Source of the DNA: Planctomycetota bacterium
GTDB lineage: Bacteria > Planctomycetota > PLA2 > JAEUHO01
Assembly: GCA_965222115.1 (NCBI GenBank)
Contig: CBDCTJ010000003.1
Span: 480,001 to 544,000 of the forward strand
Reading direction: 5' to 3'
DNA: 64,000 bases
The notes beneath the pieces are model-generated. The model was given only the letters and a program-made list of their open reading frames with translations, searched no databases and was not told the origin of the DNA. Every line of letters starts with the position of its first letter. The first letter of the stretch is position 1. The position numbers and the translations under genes are program-made. Shown here in pieces: positions 3,580 through 37,001 of this stretch.

Positions 3580-4689
3580 CTACGCCTCCGGCAGGACCGT
3601 CAGTAGCAGAGCAGCCATTCGTACATGGAGGACCCGGGCTTCTTCGGCTGTCAGTTCAGACGGGACTCGGTGAACCGATTCGTCGAACAGCTTCAAGAAC
3701 GGACCCACAGCGTCGACGTCCGTGGCGACGTACTTCTGCATGGAGGCCGTTTCTTGCCTGGCAATGAAGCGAATCCTGGCCTTGCGCGTTGGCTTGCCAT
3801 TGCTGAAGTCCTTCGGGTCCGTCGACCAATCCTGAACCTTGTCATCCGGGGAGAGGGTGTGCAGCACGTATCGGAAGAGCTCGCGCAACGAGGCGCCAAC
3901 ATGGCGTGCGACATCCGGCCCGCCCGCGCTCAATGCGGCGGAGGCGCCCTCCCAAAGGCTGACGCACTCCGGATCGAGCGCTGTGAGTCGGTCCACGAGC
4001 ACCACCTCCGTCTGGTCGAGAACGAGCGTGGTCTGCGCTTCGGCATCCTCTTCGAGCTCGGGCTCGCGGTCTTCGCGGGGGAGCGTTACGACTTCGGCAA
4101 GCCGCGAAGCCACAAATCGCTCACGTGCAACGGTCGCGGCTGTCTGCAGCCGCACGTGCGTCTCAAGCGATGCTGCCCCAAGCTCCGCGAGTACGTCCGA
4201 CTCTGCAGCCCAGAGACGACCGAGTTTCGCGTCGATCTGTGTGGCGGCAGCCCAGTCTGACGGGACCAGGCCGCCAATCTTCAGCCCGGCCATCTGATCC
4301 GCGAGGCGAGAAGAGATCGACAGTGACTGCTCGAACGCAGCCAGAACTTTCGCAGACTCCGCCAACGTTGAGGCGTACCCCGGCAGCTTCGGGGTCGTTG
4401 CCTTGGCCAAGGCGTCTAGCTGGCGCTGGGATGCGTTCTGGATCTCCTGGAACTGCTGGCTGACGCGAGTCACGGAACTTGCGACCTCAATCGCCTTGAG
4501 ATTCGGAGCTGACAGCTGCTCCAAGCGCCGGGTCTGCTGGGCGATCTGCTCCACAACGTGCATTGCGCTGGCTGACTTTGCCATCTCCTGCATCGTCGTG
4601 CCAAGAAGGCGGGAGTTCTCGATCATCCTGACAAAGGCCTCGGTGGCGCGCATGTGCGCCATCAGGGCTGAACTGTCGTGCTTAGCCAC
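3580..4689 (-). CDS. Helical N-terminus plus predicted pPIWI-associating nuclease-like domain (pP_pnuc_1-like)
   Basis: C-terminal LWEGASAALSAGGPDVARHVGASLRELFRYVLHTLSPD..GKPTRKARIRFI..SVH pattern; GTG 4689 preceded by GGAG. Confidence 0.65.
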   Translation of the reverse strand: MAKHDSSALMAHMRATEAFVRMIENSRLLGTTMQEMAKSASAMHVVEQIAQQTRRLEQLSAPNLKAIEVASSVTRVSQQFQEIQNASQRQLDALAKATTPKLPGYASTLAESAKVLAAFEQSLSISSRLADQMAGLKIGGLVPSDWAAATQIDAKLGRLWAAESDVLAELGAASLETHVRLQTAATVARERFVASRLAEVVTLPREDREPELEEDAEAQTTLVLDQTEVVLVDRLTALDPECVSLWEGASAALSAGGPDVARHVGASLRELFRYVLHTLSPDDKVQDWSTDPKDFSNGKPTRKARIRFIARQETASMQKYVATDVDAVGPFLKLFDESVHRVPSELTAEEARVLHVRMAALLLTVLPEA

Positions 4690-4764
4690 GGTCTCACTCC
4701 CGGTCCTTGTGCGCCCCCGCACCGGATCATACCGGACGAAATACGGAGATGGGATGAAAAGGCC

Positions 4765-4842
4765 GGTAGCTCCTCTGTCGCGCAGTCACGGTAAACCGTG
4801 CTGCAAACAATAAACGGGCTCTACGGCCCAGGAGGAGCTACC
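4765..4842 (+). promoter_or_regulatory. Inverted repeat able to sequester the transposase RBS
   Basis: GGTAGCTCCT (4765-4774) is the perfect complement of AGGAGCTACC (4833-4842), which overlaps the GGAGG RBS before ATG 4846. Confidence 0.6.
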
Positions 4843-4845
4843 AGC

Positions 4846-5895
4846 ATGCATAAGCGTATCACCGAAACGATTGGCATCGACTTAGGCGACCGATTCTCTT
4901 GGTATTGTGTCTTAGATCAAGACACGGGGGTTCAGAAGGAAGAAGGCGAGATAGCGACAACGCGCGAATCGTTTCACGAGTTTCTCTCGAAGCACCGAAC
5001 CGCTCGAGTTGTGATGGAGGCGGGAACGCATTCGCCTTGGGCGAGTCGGGTCGTCGAAGGTCGATGTGCTCAGTCGCTAGTCGCGAATCCGCGAGAGCTA
5101 AGCTTTATTTACAGGAACGCTCGCAAGTCCGATCGAACGGATGCCAAGAAGTTGGCTGAAATCGGTCGCTTCGATCCCCAACTACTTGCCCCAATTCGGC
5201 ATCGACCGGAGTCCGCACAACGAGACCTTGCGCTGATTCGTGCACGAGCCGCGCTTGTGTCGTCACGAACCAAGTTGGTGAACTCGCTACGAGGTGTCAT
5301 TAAGAGCATGGGCGGGCGGTTGCGTAAGCAGGCATCAAAATGCATCGGATCGAAGACGCGGGCCGAGATTCCGGAGGAGCTCTGCGATGTGCTCAATCCC
5401 ATTCTCAGTGCAATCGAGCGAATCACTGAGTTGGTAAAGATCTACGACGCAAAGATCGATGAGTTGGCGAAGGAGCGATATCCAGATACACAGTTGCTCA
5501 CTCAGATTCCAGGCGTGGGCAATCTCACGGCACTCGCATTCATGTTGACCGTTCAAGATTGGGCGCGGTTTGAAGACCGCCGAGATGTCGGGGCGTTTCT
5601 CGGGATGGTTCCACGGCGTGATCAATCCGGCCAAATGGACAAGCAGCTACGCATAACGAAGGCTGGGGACCGTATGGTTCGGTCGTTGCTCGTTCAGTGC
5701 GCGCATCACATCCTCGGGCGACTGGGCCCGCCATGCGATCTAAAGTCCCACGGTGAGCGGATCATTGCGCGTGGAGGCGCAGTTGCGAAACGCAAGGCAG
5801 TCATCGCCGTGGCACGCAAGCTCTCCGTGCTCATGCTTGCGCTGTGGCGAACAGGCGAAGAGTACATACCGGTTCGATGCCCAGTGGCTGCCTGA
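4846..5895 (+). CDS. IS110 family transposase/recombinase
   Basis: DEDD RuvC-like motifs GIDLG, VVMEAG, KSDRTDA; IPGVG; catalytic-Ser motif RRDQSG; AVARKL. Confidence 0.97.
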   Translation: MHKRITETIGIDLGDRFSWYCVLDQDTGVQKEEGEIATTRESFHEFLSKHRTARVVMEAGTHSPWASRVVEGRCAQSLVANPRELSFIYRNARKSDRTDAKKLAEIGRFDPQLLAPIRHRPESAQRDLALIRARAALVSSRTKLVNSLRGVIKSMGGRLRKQASKCIGSKTRAEIPEELCDVLNPILSAIERITELVKIYDAKIDELAKERYPDTQLLTQIPGVGNLTALAFMLTVQDWARFEDRRDVGAFLGMVPRRDQSGQMDKQLRITKAGDRMVRSLLVQCAHHILGRLGPPCDLKSHGERIIARGGAVAKRKAVIAVARKLSVLMLALWRTGEEYIPVRCPVAA

Positions 5896-6264
5896 ACCTC
5901 GCGCAACAGCTTTAGGCAAGCATTAGAAAGGTCAGTTTCCACGTACCCCAATTCGAGTCCGGGTGACTGCGGTGCCCTGACCGACGTATAGCGACGTCGC
6001 TACTGAGTATGCAGCACCCAGACTCGTTCTCGGACCCCACCTTGCACCGGGTCGCATCAACTTCGATCCAACACGAGTGCGCATAGAAGCCTGAATGGGA
6101 CGTGTTTTCTGGCGCCAGTGACGATGGCTGGCAATTTGATTCGCTCCGATCCGCTGCCAGAAAGGCAAGGGCGATAAGGGTAAGTTGCGTACTCAAGGGG
6201 CCGAACTACACATGCACAACGCGGTAAATGCGCTCGCCGACGCGGCTTCGCACTTGACATGCCA
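5896..6264 (+). ncRNA. Candidate bridge RNA/seekRNA region of the IS1111-group element
   Basis: About 370 nt non-coding; hairpins CGACGT/ACGTCG (5982-5999) and ACTCGT/ACGAGT; CATAGAAG (6082-6089) equals the element right terminus (6273-6280); boundaries uncertain. Confidence 0.6.
6254..6259 (+). promoter_or_regulatory. Outward-facing -35 box (junction promoter on circularisation)
   Basis: Perfect TTGACA just inside the right IR; 17 nt later the circle junction would read GAAGAT (weak -10). Confidence 0.5.
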
Positions 6265-6280
6265 GGCCTTTTCATAGAAG

Positions 6281-6689
6281 TACGGGAAAAATCCACACTT
6301 TTCTTGTCCTTTAGGTGCGCCATGCACGCTCCTCTAGCGACGTGCAGTTCATCGATGAATTGTTCGGTCGAGATAGACGTCGCAGATGGGGCACCAAACT
6401 CTCAAGCTCTCTTTGCGCTGGGCAAGCCAGTCGAATTCGATCGCCAGCATGCCTCATGGTCATTGCAATGATCCTACTTCGTCACGTCGACATAGTCACT
6501 CGGCACGATCGGAATGACGCATAGCAGATCGCAGCGGCAACGGACGCAAACACTGTAGACTGTACACAACAAGTATCGTTGCCAATAAGTGTGAATTTGC
6601 TTCTGACGCTGTTCTCCTGCACGCAGCATTCGCGCTGTTGACTGAGCGCTGCCCTACGACAAGTGTGGATTTTTCCCGTACACCGTATT
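6281..6689. repeat. Repeat element E2; its first bases (AATACGG, 4740-4746) are displaced by the IS
   Basis: Reconstituted left end AATACGGAGTACGGGAAAAATCCACACTT vs reverse complement of 6661-6689, 28/29 identical; long left and right blocks shared with E1. Confidence 0.9.
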
Positions 6690-6726
6690 CTTGCGGAACG
6701 CGGTGCGGCGCTAGGCCACGGAGTGG

Positions 6727-7947
6727 TCAGCAGGCGATCTCCGAGACGGTCAGATTGCCTTTACCGTCACGGCAGAAGATCGTGGTGTCTCCGTCCGTGG
6801 AGACCACAAGGCCGAAAGAGTCCGAAACGCGGCTTGTCGCACATGCGATCGACTTGTGTCTCGTCCCCTTCTTGCGCGACTCCAAGAACTCCCGGACCCC
6901 AGGCGGTAGGTCGGGGTATGCATCCTCCGCAAGCAGCTTGCTGCCGACACCCAGGGGACGGAGCATGGGTCCGAGAACCACTGCCCCGTCGATGCGCGTC
7001 GCGTGGCAGAGACGCACGACCTCGTCGTCAGCCATTCGCGCCGACGTCAGCATGTGCTGGGTGTACGGATGCTTCAGTGCTGGCGGCGGCGCCGGAGGAT
7101 CGGCGGGGTCGATAGCACGGCACGCGAGCGACTCCTGCAACCCCCCCGACCAGTCATCGCCGGCCGACTTCAAGGCGTTTGCCTGGTCTACACACTTCAG
7201 TTCGTCGAGCGACGCGGCGCAGGTGACCAGTACCCCGGCGCCGCCGCCGAGTCTCCTTGCCGACCGCGCTAACTTGAGCAGGGACTGTCCCAAGCCATGA
7301 GCGATGCCAAGCAGCAACGGTGCGTCGGCACGCACGACCCAGTCGGCCTGTTCTTCCGCAGTGAACAGACTCCTATGCAGGTCGCCGGCGCGGAGTTGAA
7401 CATCCCAGCTGGAAATCAGCAGGTATGCGGGCGGGATCACCGTCCCCACTTCGATTAAGGTGGCTGGGCGTCGGCACGCCGTCTTCAGGAAGACAGCTTC
7501 ACCGTCGGCGTTCTTGACATACAGCTCCGCGACGTCCCGCAGCTCTACGACACAGCCCGCTCCCCACTCGAAGGCATGGCCACTCACGAAGTTCGCAACT
7601 TGACGGGAGACGATGCCACGGACACGAAGCCCATCGTTGCTCCCTTCGATGACGAATGCCGTCTCCCACGGATCGAAAGCCGAGCCGACTTTGCGAAGCC
7701 AGTCCACTGAAACGGAGGGCTTCTGCGAGAACTCGACGAGCAAGTTCAGTGTGGCGTCGGCGGGAAGCAGGAGAAACGACCCGCACGGCACGCGCCCCTC
7801 TTCCCGGTAGAGCCCGGTCTCGTAGAGCAGATCAAGCAACTCGGTCGTCGCGGGAGGCCACGGCAAGCGGTCACTTTCAGCGAGATGCTCTTGCGCCGCG
7901 TCGAGTAGTGACGACGCGTCAAAGCGCCGATAGCCTGCAGTAGCCAT
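6727..7947 (-). CDS. Diadenylate cyclase (DisA_N/DAC) domain protein with N-terminal DACNV-like sensor domain
   Basis: RIDGAVVL (DGA), GTRHKS (RHR-like), VVSTDG; N-terminal ETGLYREEGR; GGGAGG RBS; no TM helices evident. Confidence 0.8.
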   Translation of the reverse strand: MATAGYRRFDASSLLDAAQEHLAESDRLPWPPATTELLDLLYETGLYREEGRVPCGSFLLLPADATLNLLVEFSQKPSVSVDWLRKVGSAFDPWETAFVIEGSNDGLRVRGIVSRQVANFVSGHAFEWGAGCVVELRDVAELYVKNADGEAVFLKTACRRPATLIEVGTVIPPAYLLISSWDVQLRAGDLHRSLFTAEEQADWVVRADAPLLLGIAHGLGQSLLKLARSARRLGGGAGVLVTCAASLDELKCVDQANALKSAGDDWSGGLQESLACRAIDPADPPAPPPALKHPYTQHMLTSARMADDEVVRLCHATRIDGAVVLGPMLRPLGVGSKLLAEDAYPDLPPGVREFLESRKKGTRHKSIACATSRVSDSFGLVVSTDGDTTIFCRDGKGNLTVSEIAC

Positions 7948-7995: not shown

Positions 7996-8029
7996 TAATA
8001 CCGTAATACCGTGCCGTAATACCGTGCCG
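7996..8029. repeat. Short direct repeats, TAATACCG x3, upstream of the DAC gene
   Basis: TAATACCG at 7996, 8004 and 8017; TAATACCGTGCCG twice in tandem. Confidence 0.7.
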
Positions 8030-8075
8030 CGTTTCTTCCCACCAAGTAAGTGACTCTAGACCTATGCGCATTCAG

Positions 8076-8589
8076 AGATTCGGTGTGCGGGCGAAGTCCA
8101 CACGTTCTGTATTGCTCGGCGAAGTCAGAGGCATCTTGCCCACACGAAATGAGTGGAGGATCGGGGAAGAGTCGGAACTTCTGTGTAAGGCATGTCGTCC
8201 GATCCAAAGCCGAGAGAATGCACCGTGGCTCAACGTAAAGAAGAGCGAGCCCGTAGGCGTTACTGGTTCGAGCCCAGTAACGCACACCAACGAGTTCTCC
8301 TCCTTCTTAGCAATAGCCCAACTCACGCCATACTGGAGCCCCCCAAAATGGCAAGTTCCATGCTGCGACAAAACACGTGACCGCTTCTCAGCCACTTTGG
8401 CTGCCGAGCCGCCAACAGCTTGCGTCGACGGACTAATCTTTGGTCATTCAAATGGTGGGCTAATTTGTGGTGCGTATCAAGTCGTGTCGAATTGCCTCGG
8501 ACTGTCAAGGAAACGCTGCACTAGGCGTCCGCCCTGGTGACTGTGCGCTGTCCTACTAAAGGTGTGGATTCTGCCCGTGAACCGTATCT
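8076..8589. repeat. Repeat element E3 (diverged copy, different interior)
   Basis: Ends AGATTCGGTGTGCGGGCGAAGTCCACAC and GTGTGGATTCTGCCCGTGAACCGTATCT; last ~90 bp align with E1/E2 (CTGCAC..TGACTG..CGCTG.CCTAC..AGGTGTGGAT). Confidence 0.8.
8257..8289 (+). other. tRNA 3'-end-like fragment (T-arm plus ACCA) inside E3
   Basis: ACTGG-TTCGAGC-CCAGT T-arm, 7 nt, then ACCA; no complete cloverleaf. Confidence 0.5.
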
Positions 8590-13960: not shown

Positions 13961-14399
13961 ACAAAGCCGGGGATACCCAGTCGGGACCAAATCCACACTA
14001 TTCGGGGATTGTGTTTGATCATGCTCGCGCGAGAATGCTCCGGTTCTTAGTATCGTACGGATTCGTCGCAAAAATCATTTCTCCAACGACGGGCGCTCCT
14101 CCATCGCGATCGAAGACACGGCCACAAATGGTGATCAACTCGTCGTGTTTCAGCCCAACTTTCAGGATACCGGAGATACGGCATGTTAAATGAAACGGCC
14201 GGACGTCTAACTTACGAAGCCACATCGGCGAGCGTAACTTATTCAGCGCGTGCATGGCCAGCAATCCACCTGAATTCGCGTATAGTACATACTCAGTCAA
14301 TCGCGTCGTTACTCTTGCGGCCATGCTGAGGAGCCAGGCATTTCATTCGTACCGTTTAATTCCGGCACGTACACGCATCGCTTTCCCGTTGCGGACGCA

Positions 14400-34295: not shown

Positions 34296-37001
34296 ATGAG
34301 CAAGCCGATACGTCTGGTGGATTCCCTCGATCTCGCAACCCTAAGGAGCCACGACGGCTTCCTTCGGGCACTTGCGCGGGGACTCTTGATTGGCGACGTC
34401 GATGCCGACGATGTCGTACAGGACACGTGGTTGTCGGCGCTCAAGAACGAGGGGGCCGTCCGTCGACCACGAGCCTGGCTCGCGCGCGTCACACGCAGGC
34501 GCGCGATCGACCGCATACGGCGGGAACATACACGGGCGGGCTACGAGACAAGCACGCCCGGCCCACAACCCGTTCTCTCTCCTGCCGTCATCGCGGAGAG
34601 GGAAGAACTCCGGGCAAGATTGGTCGCTCGCGTACTCGCACTCCCACAACCGCTTCGCGAGGCCATTCTACTCCGGCACTATAACGGGCTCGCGCCTCGC
34701 AGCGCGGCCGAGGTCGCAGGAGTTCCGCTGGAGACGTTTCGTACGCGACTCAAGCGCGGCTATGCACGGTTGCGCGAGCAGTTTCTACGAGACGAACCCG
34801 ATCGCCGCTGGGTTTCCGGCCTCAGCGCGCTCGGCAACGTGTCGCTGGTGACGCCCGCGCTATCGCTCGGCATGTGTGCAGTTCTCTTCGGCCTCATCAC
34901 GACACTTGGACTCGTAATCGGCTATCTACTCGTCCACCGAAACACAGTCACGACCCCGGACGAAGCGTCCATACGAGAGGCCTCGGCAGATCGAGGCGCG
35001 GTACCTGATCGGGGGCCGATGCTCACGCCCGCAGTGCTTCAACAACAACGGGCGGTGAAGTCGAGCCCACCGCAGACCCGGAAGGGCTGTTGGCTTGTCG
35101 GACGAGTCAAGTCAGCGGTCGGATTTGGCAACACGCCGGTGACACTTCGCGTGCGCGACCCCAGGCAACCCGAACGACATGCGCTAACAAGCTTGAGTAA
35201 CATTGATGGCAGCGTCTCAATCGACGTGACTTCGCTCTTTCCGCAGTCGGATCCAAGGCGCTCACTTCTACAGTTGCTCGTTGAACTTGACCACCCGTTA
35301 CACATGCGAGCGTCTGTCAATGTCGAGGTATCTCGCCAGGCGCGACGCGTGGGTCGTTACCGGGAAGGACACGCGACACTAGCTCTTGAAGCCAAGCTCG
35401 AAGCAGCCTCACGGTGGGTTCGAGGCGTCGTAACGCCCCCACCCGGGATTGCGCCAGCCGACTTGCGCGTTGCCTTGCTCAGGTGGGATGTCGACGGTGA
35501 CCGTCCGTACCCATGCGCCTCGGATCACGCATCGCCAAACGATGACGGAAGCTACGAACTCCGTTCGACCACGGGAGGACGGCATGCGGTGGTCGCGTGG
35601 CCCGTGCCATCTACTACGTCCGCGTGCCTTCCAGGCCATATCTACGTGGACATCGGGCAACCAAACATCGAAGCGCCTCCGTTTGTTCTCGAAGCAGGCG
35701 ACGTTGTCGATGGACGTGTTGTCACTCGCGGTGAACTCCAGGACGGCGCGCGCCTTCATCTCGAGGCGACGCCCCGCGGCACCGGAGGAATGGCATGCAG
35801 TGACCCCGTACCACTTAAGTGGCAGCACGACTTGTTTCACATGAAGTATCGCGTCGTCCTTACGCGTCGCAACGGCTCCTTCGAGATTGCGGGCTTTCAT
35901 CACGGCCCCATCAATCTCCGACTCAAGCAAGACGTCTCGTGGAATGACGCGGTTTTACCTACCTATCGTGACGACGACGTTGAACTGCCCGAATGGTCGA
36001 TCCACGTACCAAGCGCGAATCACGAACTCGAGGTGCCACTGGAACTCTGGTTGCTACAGGTCGACTTTGATGGGATGGGCTATAGGAGGCTCGGCGTCCA
36101 CTGCGAGGGCTCGACTTTTGGCATGCACGATGTCGATGCGAAGGGGCGTACGGCGAACTTTGCGCAAGGCAACGGTAGCGTGCGCGAGCACGCCTTTCTT
36201 GCAGGAGAACTCGGGGTGGTAAAGGCAACCGTGCGGCCCGGTCAGTGGAGCCATGTTCGCTTTCGTCGTGCGGACGATCTCGGCTCGCTCAACATCGAGC
36301 TAGACGAAAACGCGGCCTCGAAGAGCGACCTGTTTCGTTTGTATCTTCGTGACGCGTCGCCAAACGGTCGCAACTGGCTTATGCGCATGCCGAGCTACGA
36401 GGCAGTTCGCCACGGGACTACGCTGAGCTACGCCAATGTGACGCCCGGAACATGGACCGGTGAACTCGTTCCGTGCTTCGGACGTGGAGCCGAGTGGAAC
36501 TCATTCCTTTGCGCGACGTTCTTCGACGTAGACGTTCCCGGTGGAGAGACGGCGCGCGTTCAAGTCACGCTTCCGGAAGGGGGCTACGTCCGAATCGAAA
36601 ATCTCCATGCCATTGCACATGCACTAGGCATTCGCGGCACGCGTTGGGCGCCCGGTAACCTACTTCGTTTGCGTATTCTGGACGACCAAGGCAAATCGCA
36701 GAAGGTGCGCTACGAAAGCACGGATCCAAAGCGCACGTTGGAGCCCTACGGGTGGCCACGGCGCCTGGATCGACCGGTGACGAGACACAGGAATGGCCGG
36801 TTTTGGCCTGCCTTGCAACCGGGGACGTACCGGCTGGAGATTCGGCGCCCCAAACCGCAGTCAAAAACTCCCCGTGTATGGGCGACAGATGACATACGGC
36901 TGCGAAACGAGGAGCTGCAAGACACCAAACCACGGTATGTCCCATTCTCAGTAGCGAAAGGAACGTGGACGGTCATTACTAGAGATCATGTTGCGCGATA
37001 A
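34296..37001 (+). CDS. ECF sigma factor fused to TM helix and large extracytoplasmic beta-sandwich region
   Basis: Region 2 ADDVVQDTW..AWL; region 4 LPQPLREAILLRHY..ETFRTRLKRG; TM; GSFEIAG/PGTY repeats. Confidence 0.85.
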   Translation: MSKPIRLVDSLDLATLRSHDGFLRALARGLLIGDVDADDVVQDTWLSALKNEGAVRRPRAWLARVTRRRAIDRIRREHTRAGYETSTPGPQPVLSPAVIAEREELRARLVARVLALPQPLREAILLRHYNGLAPRSAAEVAGVPLETFRTRLKRGYARLREQFLRDEPDRRWVSGLSALGNVSLVTPALSLGMCAVLFGLITTLGLVIGYLLVHRNTVTTPDEASIREASADRGAVPDRGPMLTPAVLQQQRAVKSSPPQTRKGCWLVGRVKSAVGFGNTPVTLRVRDPRQPERHALTSLSNIDGSVSIDVTSLFPQSDPRRSLLQLLVELDHPLHMRASVNVEVSRQARRVGRYREGHATLALEAKLEAASRWVRGVVTPPPGIAPADLRVALLRWDVDGDRPYPCASDHASPNDDGSYELRSTTGGRHAVVAWPVPSTTSACLPGHIYVDIGQPNIEAPPFVLEAGDVVDGRVVTRGELQDGARLHLEATPRGTGGMACSDPVPLKWQHDLFHMKYRVVLTRRNGSFEIAGFHHGPINLRLKQDVSWNDAVLPTYRDDDVELPEWSIHVPSANHELEVPLELWLLQVDFDGMGYRRLGVHCEGSTFGMHDVDAKGRTANFAQGNGSVREHAFLAGELGVVKATVRPGQWSHVRFRRADDLGSLNIELDENAASKSDLFRLYLRDASPNGRNWLMRMPSYEAVRHGTTLSYANVTPGTWTGELVPCFGRGAEWNSFLCATFFDVDVPGGETARVQVTLPEGGYVRIENLHAIAHALGIRGTRWAPGNLLRLRILDDQGKSQKVRYESTDPKRTLEPYGWPRRLDRPVTRHRNGRFWPALQPGTYRLEIRRPKPQSKTPRVWATDDIRLRNEELQDTKPRYVPFSVAKGTWTVITRDHVAR

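Follow-up and report, generated by a model that had tools for sequence, protein, structure and literature searches.

How does one mobile element come to lie at an exact point in the end of another, and what has directed it there? The question is raised by a 64,000-nt stretch of DNA (hereafter the window) from a Planctomycetota bacterium (assembly GCA_965222115.1, contig CBDCTJ010000003.1, positions 480,001 to 544,000), in which a single copy of an insertion sequence (IS) of the IS1111 type occupies the left terminal inverted repeat of E2, a member of a small family of repeats (E1-E3). Coordinates are those of the window, and all features are on the plus strand unless stated otherwise. Our analysis indicates that this is probably an apparently intact IS1111-family element with a DEDD recombinase that takes its guidance from an RNA of the 3′ non-coding region (5949-6111), and probably one of a lineage specialised on the ends of other mobile elements. 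This reading is based on the anatomy of the element, conserved RNA structure, the covariation of guides with flanks and with element ends, and a better-than-chance fit of the guide to the insertion site.

A precise insertion into a terminal inverted repeat

The IS is 1532 bp long; its boundary is ambiguous by 2 bp (4747-6278 or, equivalently, 4749-6280), owing to the AG core. At the left junction, AATACGG (4740-4746), the outer part of the left terminal repeat of E2, is followed by the left copy of the core (AG, 4747-4748), by ATGGG (4749-4753) and by the left subterminal inverted repeat ATGAAAAGGCC (4754-4764), 11 nt separated from the left end by 7 nt. On the other side, the right subterminal repeat GGCCTTTTCAT (6265-6275), also of 11 nt and ending 3 nt from the right end, is followed by AGA (6276-6278) and the right copy of the core (AG, 6279-6280). 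With this second AG the remainder of E2 (6279-6692) begins: the inner part of the left terminal repeat (TACGGG... from 6281), the body and the right terminal repeat (6664-6692). The two 11-nt arms are perfect inverted repeats of one another.

When the IS was deleted in silico, the restored left terminus of E2 was identical at 28 of 29 positions to the reverse complement of 6664-6692, and the sole mismatch was the first core base (A versus T). Both the reading of the junctions (the outer E2 segment with the left core being 4740-4748) and the deletion therefore confirm the observation that an IS1111-group element is precisely inserted in the terminus of a repeat. The original prediction had reported the same identity to the opposite end of E2, with its one difference in the 2-bp core, which the deletion reproduced; the inverted-repeat offsets of 7 and 3 nt that it gave were also correct, and the same offsets are found in the 48 related elements whose flanks could be read on both sides.

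The repeats themselves resemble miniature inverted-repeat transposable elements (MITEs). There are three copies of about 320-510 bp with common 29-nt terminal inverted repeats: E1 (2356-2680), an intact member with TG at the core position; E2 (4740-6692), of ~415 bp without the IS, which lies in its left terminal repeat; and E3 (8078-8589), a diverged member with TG and TT at the core position. E1 and E2 are 91% identical over 183 nt. When up to 3 mismatches are allowed, the inner 20 nt of the terminus have four occurrences in the window, the expected number being 0.01. By inspection, no direct repeats flank E1, E2 or E3, so that the target-site duplications of MITE-like elements were not found. 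A Pfam scan of the two open reading frames (ORFs) of E2 (6259-6471 and 6315-6524), the only ORFs of the family that were scanned, gave no match. The termini begin with ATAC or GTAC and not with the GT(A/G)G head and imperfect palindrome of repetitive extragenic palindromic (REP) sequences, and the DNA folds of four termini were no better than those of shuffled sequences (z from -0.41 to +0.64).

The transposase gene (4846-5895) was delimited by translation and alignment together with Pfam and NCBIfam profiles. It encodes an intact protein of 349 aa with a DEDD/RuvC-like N-terminal domain (PF01548, 66.2 bits, cutoff 29) and an IS110-family C-terminal domain (PF02371, 78.8 bits, cutoff 21.3), and it matches the NCBIfam model transpos_IS110 ("IS110 family RNA-guided transposase") with 220 bits (cutoff 140). 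In an alignment of 42 transposases, D12, E58, D96, D99 and G262 are invariant and S261 is nearly so. The motif GMVPRRDQSG of the window protein has M in place of the L of the IS1111 motif GL-P----S(t)G.

IS1111 elements, a family within IS110 in the sense of ISfinder, are characterised by subterminal repeats, by asymmetric extensions (left, 7 bp or occasionally 6; right, 3 bp) and by a long 3′ non-coding region, as set out in PMC11187229. Every IS1111 trait that can be judged from sequence is found in the window element. Its protein is inside the 330-350 aa range, its arms are perfect over 11 bp (11-13 bp, perfect or near-perfect, being usual), its extensions are AGATGGG on the left (7 nt) and AGA on the right (3 nt), and 385 nt of non-coding DNA (counted to 6280) lie downstream of the gene compared with 97 nt upstream. 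It thus appears to be a complete and apparently functional RNA-guided element of the IS1111 type, residing in a transposon end.

A predicted guide RNA encoded downstream of the gene for the transposase

In order to compare this element with its relatives, genome contigs were scanned. With the transposase protein alone, the scan yielded 595 pattern matches, none of which was confirmed, whereas with the 42-sequence alignment it led to 79 loci (44-61% identity). Most of these come from metagenome-assembled genomes (MAGs) of Planctomycetota, Verrucomicrobiota and Anaerolineales, with the closest relatives in Planctomycetota MAGs. The same ends (flank, AG, 5-6 nt, ATGAGAAGG-type arm ... arm, 3 nt, AG, flank) are present at 58 of the 79 loci. 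Flank statistics were calculated for 48 elements; the 31 loci left out comprise 21 without canonical ends according to the repeat finder (19 with other repeats, 2 with none) and 10 with too little flank. AG is found at the right junction in 47 of the 48 (GG in L057). At the protein level, the closest sequence (P0001, on a 3.07-Mb contig) is 98% identical and represents a cluster of seven sequences; the next matches do not exceed 66% identity and are mostly on contigs of 1.3-2.4 kb, most of the close relatives (62-66%) being short metagenome contigs. A blastn search of the IS against the plasmids of PLSDB gave no match.

The aligned 3′ non-coding regions contain a conserved scaffold broken by variable stretches. 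For 15 sequences, RNAalifold gave 26 consensus pairs, 12 of them with compensatory changes; 95.8% of cells were paired, compared with 87.7% in shuffled alignments and 30-42% in slid controls, and none of 500 shuffles equalled the observed values. The covariance model built from this alignment (R1) matched 3′ of the gene in 78 of the 79 related loci. In the window it matched only at 5949-6111 (115.9 bits, E 2e-29), which defines the predicted seekRNA or bridge RNA scaffold with its covariation-supported structure. A scan of 4500-6900 against Rfam 15, at E up to 1, revealed no matching family.

The variable stretches can be assigned to two regions. The target-binding loop is an internal loop within a long outer stem, and an inner hairpin (5982-5999) separates its two strands. 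The 5′ strand (right target guide, 5972-5981) is complementary to the top strand of the core G and the right flank; the 3′ strand (6000-6007), composed of the left target guide CTACTG and AG, has the sense of the left flank and core and would pair with the bottom strand. This order, with the complement of the top strand 5′ of the match to the bottom strand, is that reported for IS1111 seekRNAs, and the assignment of the strands agrees with that described for bridge RNAs. In the donor-binding region, the 5′ strand (6032-6041) contains CCCA (6036-6039), complementary to TGGG of the left end, and the 3′ strand CATAGAAG (6082-6089) is identical to the right end plus core (8/8 with the window copy's own end).

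The donor region follows the ends of the elements throughout the group. Its triplet equals the right 3-nt extension, which is GGA, AGA, GAA or AAA, in all of the 48 elements except L028 (47/48). Beyond a conserved GCAC/GTGC stem, its 5′ strand covaries with the bases of the left end (TGGG/CCCA, TGAG/CTCA, TGGA/TCCA and AGGA/TCCT). The RNA-guided character that had been proposed from general knowledge of the family is supported, in that a predicted guide RNA can be identified and its donor loop fits the element's own ends. Target guides and flanks agree as well: across the 48 elements, agreement is 69-92% at left positions -5 to -1, 25% (chance level) at -6, and 58-85% at right positions 1-8. 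The clade therefore reads about 5 + 2 + 8 nt. Multi-copy relatives have common flanks, e.g. L065/L068/L071/L072 and L039/L053.

In several relatives, the 5′ half of the target stem-loop is tandemly duplicated (L022:3583-3805, L065/L068/L071/L072:3561-3788 and L039:3605-3813). In L022 and in the L065 group the duplicated halves hold different right guides, the second of which matches the flank at 9/9 positions (with one G-T wobble in L022). Such duplication may be a natural route to guide reprogramming, or a trace of it.

We propose that transposition would proceed as follows. The element would excise as a circle with abutted ends (...CATAGA/AG/ATGGG...). The donor region of the RNA would hold the circle junction, one strand being identical to the right end plus core and the other complementary to the left end, while the target-binding loop would hold the chromosomal site. 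Through recombination at the shared AG core, the element would then enter the left terminal inverted repeat of E2 in a fixed orientation, at a point ~6-7 nt inward from the repeat's outer edge. As a whole, the lineage would be specialised on inverted repeats of ~30 bp, which in relatives flank a Y1/HUH transposase gene. We infer that the RNA is expressed, that the circle and a junction promoter are formed, and that this RNA, and not that of a sibling copy, directed the insertion.

The 3′ non-coding region (5896-6278) contains further features. An outward-facing TTGACA (6254-6259), conserved in 11 aligned sequences (10 relatives and the window element), is a candidate -35 box and sits 17 nt ahead of a hexamer that is completed only once the element ends join. 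Junction promoters are known for these IS families (PMC11187229), and by analogy TTGACA may be the -35 box of a promoter completed at the circle junction. A scan of 4600-6750 for sigma-70-like promoters found 0 sites.

The non-coding region is ~120 nt longer than in the nearest relatives. Its extra stretch (roughly 6100-6230) separates the guide RNA from the TTGACA box; it opens with a terminator-like hairpin (6114-6132) directly after the RNA scaffold, a weak signal, with 3 such sites found against 1.7 expected. In a blastn comparison of this stretch with the 79 related loci, one weak 21-nt match was obtained (L025, E 0.036).

Related elements in the ends of Y1/HUH transposase units

The targets of the relatives are informative with respect to what this lineage recognises. 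At the DNA level, the two closest retrievable relatives are L007 (60% identity) and L001 (61%). Each occupies the left member of a pair of 30-33-nt inverted repeats. The other member lies ~1.1 kb away and matches it at 93% and 91%, respectively, and these intact partner repeats carry the AG core. The distance from the start of the repeat to the core is 6 nt in L007 and L001 and about 6-7 nt in the window, and the repeat termini of L007 and L001 align with the E termini. The three related IS thus each lie 6-7 nt inside a ~30-bp terminal inverted repeat of a mobile-looking unit.

Between the repeats of L007 and L001 there is a single ORF, encoding Y1-like proteins of 343 aa and 327 aa, respectively, which are 37% identical to each other and have two motifs in common, HFH (HUH-type) and RY(I/L)xxN. 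With the Pfam model Y1_Tnp the L007 protein scores 21.7 bits (below the cutoff of 23) and the L001 protein 28.1 bits (above it); with the NCBIfam model REP_Tyr_transpos they score 49 and 57 bits, both under the cutoff of 80. The L001 protein had no match among PDB sequences. Since L007 and L001 have entered such repeats, ~30 bp long and placed around a Y1 gene, at the same point, we conclude that the lineage targets transposon ends.

The Y1 units (L007:2400-4981 and L001:2399-4922) combine non-palindromic 30-33-nt inverted repeats with IS200/RAYT-like proteins that have a long C-terminal extension. Judged by these sequences, they appear to represent an IS-like family not yet described.

Fit of the guide to the insertion site

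The most direct question is whether the RNA of the window element specifies the site in which this copy resides. The 13 guide positions were scored at every AG dinucleotide on both strands of the 62.5-kb IS-free window. At its own site, the guide agrees at 4/5 left, 5/8 right and 2/2 core positions, i.e. 9/13 plus the core. Only four of the 6596 AG sites reach 9/13, the real site among them, and none is higher; with a looser 15-position score, the real site is within the top 23 of 6596. Non-cognate pairs of guides and sites have a mean of 4.6/13, and 6.3% of 2106 such pairs reach 9, many targets being interrelated. The fit is therefore far better than chance, but with four mismatched positions it is imperfect: site choice is far from random without being exact.

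This result bears on the idea that the position was reached by chance, or by protein-DNA recognition in an element that no RNA programmes towards the repeat. The window shows a single copy, as that idea would allow, but we consider it extremely improbable given the rank of the site among the AG dinucleotides, the location of three related IS 6-7 nt inside ~30-bp terminal inverted repeats, the agreement of guides with flanks across 48 elements, and the flanks common to multi-copy relatives.

Three further candidate pairings were rejected. A perfect match to the left guide near 36948 (minus strand) was taken as chance because there is no fit on its right side; seven nucleotides at 6188-6194, in the extra non-coding part, that are complementary to the site were judged to be chance as well (about one is expected by our own estimate); and a bulged pairing of the right guide with the site brought no clear gain.

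Several observations weigh against the view that this RNA, in its present form, is dedicated to the E repeats. The guide mismatches its own site at LT-2, RT2, RT3 and RT7, and in IS621 mismatches are poorly tolerated (PMC11208160). Of the 48 family members, 32 fit their own sites better (family median 10/13). The guides of the window element fit the repeat of L001 at 10/13, one position better than its own site (9/13). At the core, the intact termini of E1-E3, five in number, have TG (four) or TT (one) and not AG. The window contains no Y1 gene, nothing with E below 0.47 having been found with the Y1 proteins of L007 and L001, and a blastn comparison of E1-E3 with the 79 related loci gave no match. 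What connects the E elements with the Y1 units is the similarity of their repeat termini; as there is no Y1 gene in the window and the likeness is confined to the terminal ~20 nt, we infer, rather than observe, that the E elements are derivatives of such units.

Two proposals of the original prediction consequently hold only in part. That the IS is programmed against this repeat family is supported by the 9/13 fit plus core, joint best of the 6596 sites, and is weakened by the four mismatches, the better fit to L001 and the TG or TT termini. The window does include a recombinase, a predicted guide, donor ends and an occupied target, but E1-E3 are not an obvious ready-made multicopy target set, because their intact cores differ from the donor AG. 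Either the IS entered a rare AG variant of the terminus, or the core was converted to the donor AG during or after recombination.

These discrepancies invite the explanation that the insertion is a near-cognate (off-target) one. The main programme of the element would then be another repeat, roughly TACNG/AG/TCAGGGCA, perhaps related Y1-type ends elsewhere in the genome, and E2 would have been struck only since its left terminus happens to carry AG and resembles this sequence. The mismatches, two of which adjoin the core, the higher score on the L001 repeat, a left guide identical to that of L001, and the restriction of AG, among E1-E3, to the IS-bearing terminus are all in keeping with it. 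We nevertheless regard it as somewhat unlikely: the 62.5-kb IS-free window holds no site better than 9/13, and 11 of the 48 relatives fit their own sites worse than the window element does, while L001, too, is mismatched at LT-2 of the site that it occupies. From the last two observations, the clade seems to tolerate imperfect pairing, or else its guides drift.

A different account of the mismatches is that the RNA of a sibling copy directed the insertion in trans, or that the guides mutated afterwards, so that the present RNA does not report the original specificity. Sibling copies are likely, because the 98%-identical protein represents a seven-sequence cluster, and the left guide of L007 matches the left flank of the window site at 5/5 positions. 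The window copy does not look decayed, however, since its donor loop matches its own ends (8/8 on the right) and its ORF is intact, nor is its left guide a recent random change, as L001 shares it. We therefore find this account quite improbable.

We prefer the reading given at the outset, i.e. an intact element guided by its own RNA within a lineage specialised on transposon ends. A more far-reaching version of it can be offered tentatively, although we think it unlikely to hold as a whole: the clade would be a hyperparasite of undescribed Y1/HUH elements and their MITE derivatives, with the left guide anchored on the outermost TAC-N-G, and the window copy would represent a host jump under way. 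With guides intermediate between two diverged families of ends (10/13 for the L001-type and 9/13 for the E-type end), it would have entered the sole E terminus with an AG core. If this is true, the window copy is a natural intermediate of guide reprogramming, and is evidence for loose pairing rules in the clade.

Comparison with known systems

IS4321 and IS5075 reportedly occur in the ends of Tn21-family transposons (the subject, by its title, of a 2003 paper by Partridge and Hall). Like the window element, they are of the IS1111 type, have subterminal repeats and take up a fixed position and orientation in the terminal inverted repeat of another mobile element. The differences concern the host, which there is a Tn3-family transposon and here a MITE-like repeat (in relatives, a ~1.1-kb Y1/HUH unit), the target repeats, which are unrelated in sequence, and the lineage, which in the window is environmental.

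For four members of the IS1111 family (ISPa11, ISEc11, ISKpn4 and ISPst6) seekRNAs have been shown experimentally, and the targets are REP sequences for ISPa11 and attC for ISKpn4 and ISPst6 (PMC11187229). Of the family in general, a circular intermediate with abutted ends is expected, as are an RNA that co-purifies with the transposase and is needed for transposition, and copies that all share a target sequence and an orientation. They share with the window element the non-coding region 3′ of the gene and multicopy-repeat targets, as well as an RNA of ~70-100 nt or longer in which a complement of the top strand precedes a match to the bottom strand, the two overlapping at the crossover (PMC11187229). 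In the window, by contrast, the RNA is predicted and the target is a non-palindromic terminal repeat. The window transposase is only distantly related to characterised ones; its matches by sequence to solved structures were limited to IS621 and ISCro4, over ~75 residues.

According to PMC11208160 (PDB 8wt6), IS621 likewise has one loop for the target and one for the donor. Each loop reads both strands and overlaps a 2-nt core common to donor and target; the left guides pair with the bottom strand, the right guides with the top one. IS621 differs in belonging to the IS110 group and in having its RNA in the left end, a reversed guide order, a CT core and very short subterminal repeats (PMC11208160). 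The core of the window element is AG, and its donor-binding nucleotides flank a stem with an inner hairpin and do not form a simple internal loop.

Insertion of IS110-family elements in REP sequences is known. The units of REPs with their REP-associated tyrosine transposases (RAYTs), termed REPtrons in PMC2817692, resemble L007 and L001 in that a Y1/HUH gene lies between two inverted copies of a short repeat. The repeats of L007 and L001, like those of E1-E3, differ from REPs in that they start with GTAC or ATAC instead of GT(A/G)G and are non-palindromic, and the Y1 proteins, at 327-343 aa, score under the NCBIfam RAYT cutoff.

Other sequences in the window

A seventh, diverged sequence resembling an E-type terminus, with an AG core (ATACCC/AG/TCGGGACC...), was noted at 13973-14005. 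By hand count it fits the guide at 8/13 positions, and no partner terminus was found for it.

Close by, ~55 nt at 14186-14240 (considered with 14160-14186) resemble an inverted right end of the IS: ATGAAACGGCC at 14190-14200 is followed by an 18/20 match (hand count) to the region that precedes the right subterminal repeat of the IS. Neither a transposase gene nor a match to the guide RNA is located nearby. On its left this stretch adjoins GAGATACGG, which resembles the outer edge of an E-type left terminus, in an orientation unlike that of a canonical insertion. It is possibly a rearranged remnant of a related IS.

Just upstream of E3 there is a short tandem repeat of taataccgtgccg-like units (8000-8035). 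E2 itself lies between two genes on the minus strand. For the product of one (3580-4722) a pPIWI-associating nuclease domain is predicted (PF18165, 72.9 bits), and that of the other (6727-7947) has a DACNV sensor domain (PF21751, 30.4 bits); its surroundings may be a defence-type neighbourhood punctuated by E elements.

Implications for IS1111 elements

The known mechanism is left unchanged by these results, and the window element is a new example of a known behaviour and not a new kind of system. Its closest precedents appear to be IS4321 and IS5075 in the ends of Tn21-family transposons, together with the REP- and attC-targeting IS1111 members (PMC11187229). What the window provides is a full set of natural parts from an environmental, uncharacterised branch of the RNA-guided IS1111 recombinases: the recombinase, its predicted guide RNA, in which target and donor strands can be assigned, the donor ends, an occupied target and intact near-targets that differ in the core.

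The comparison of 48 elements yields a per-position map of the flank bases that are read (five on the left, about eight on the right, and the AG core). Natural sites are often mismatched, which bears on specificity if such enzymes become tools. The analysis also indicates an undescribed pairing of mobile elements, in which members of the IS1111 group reside in the ends of Y1-transposase units.

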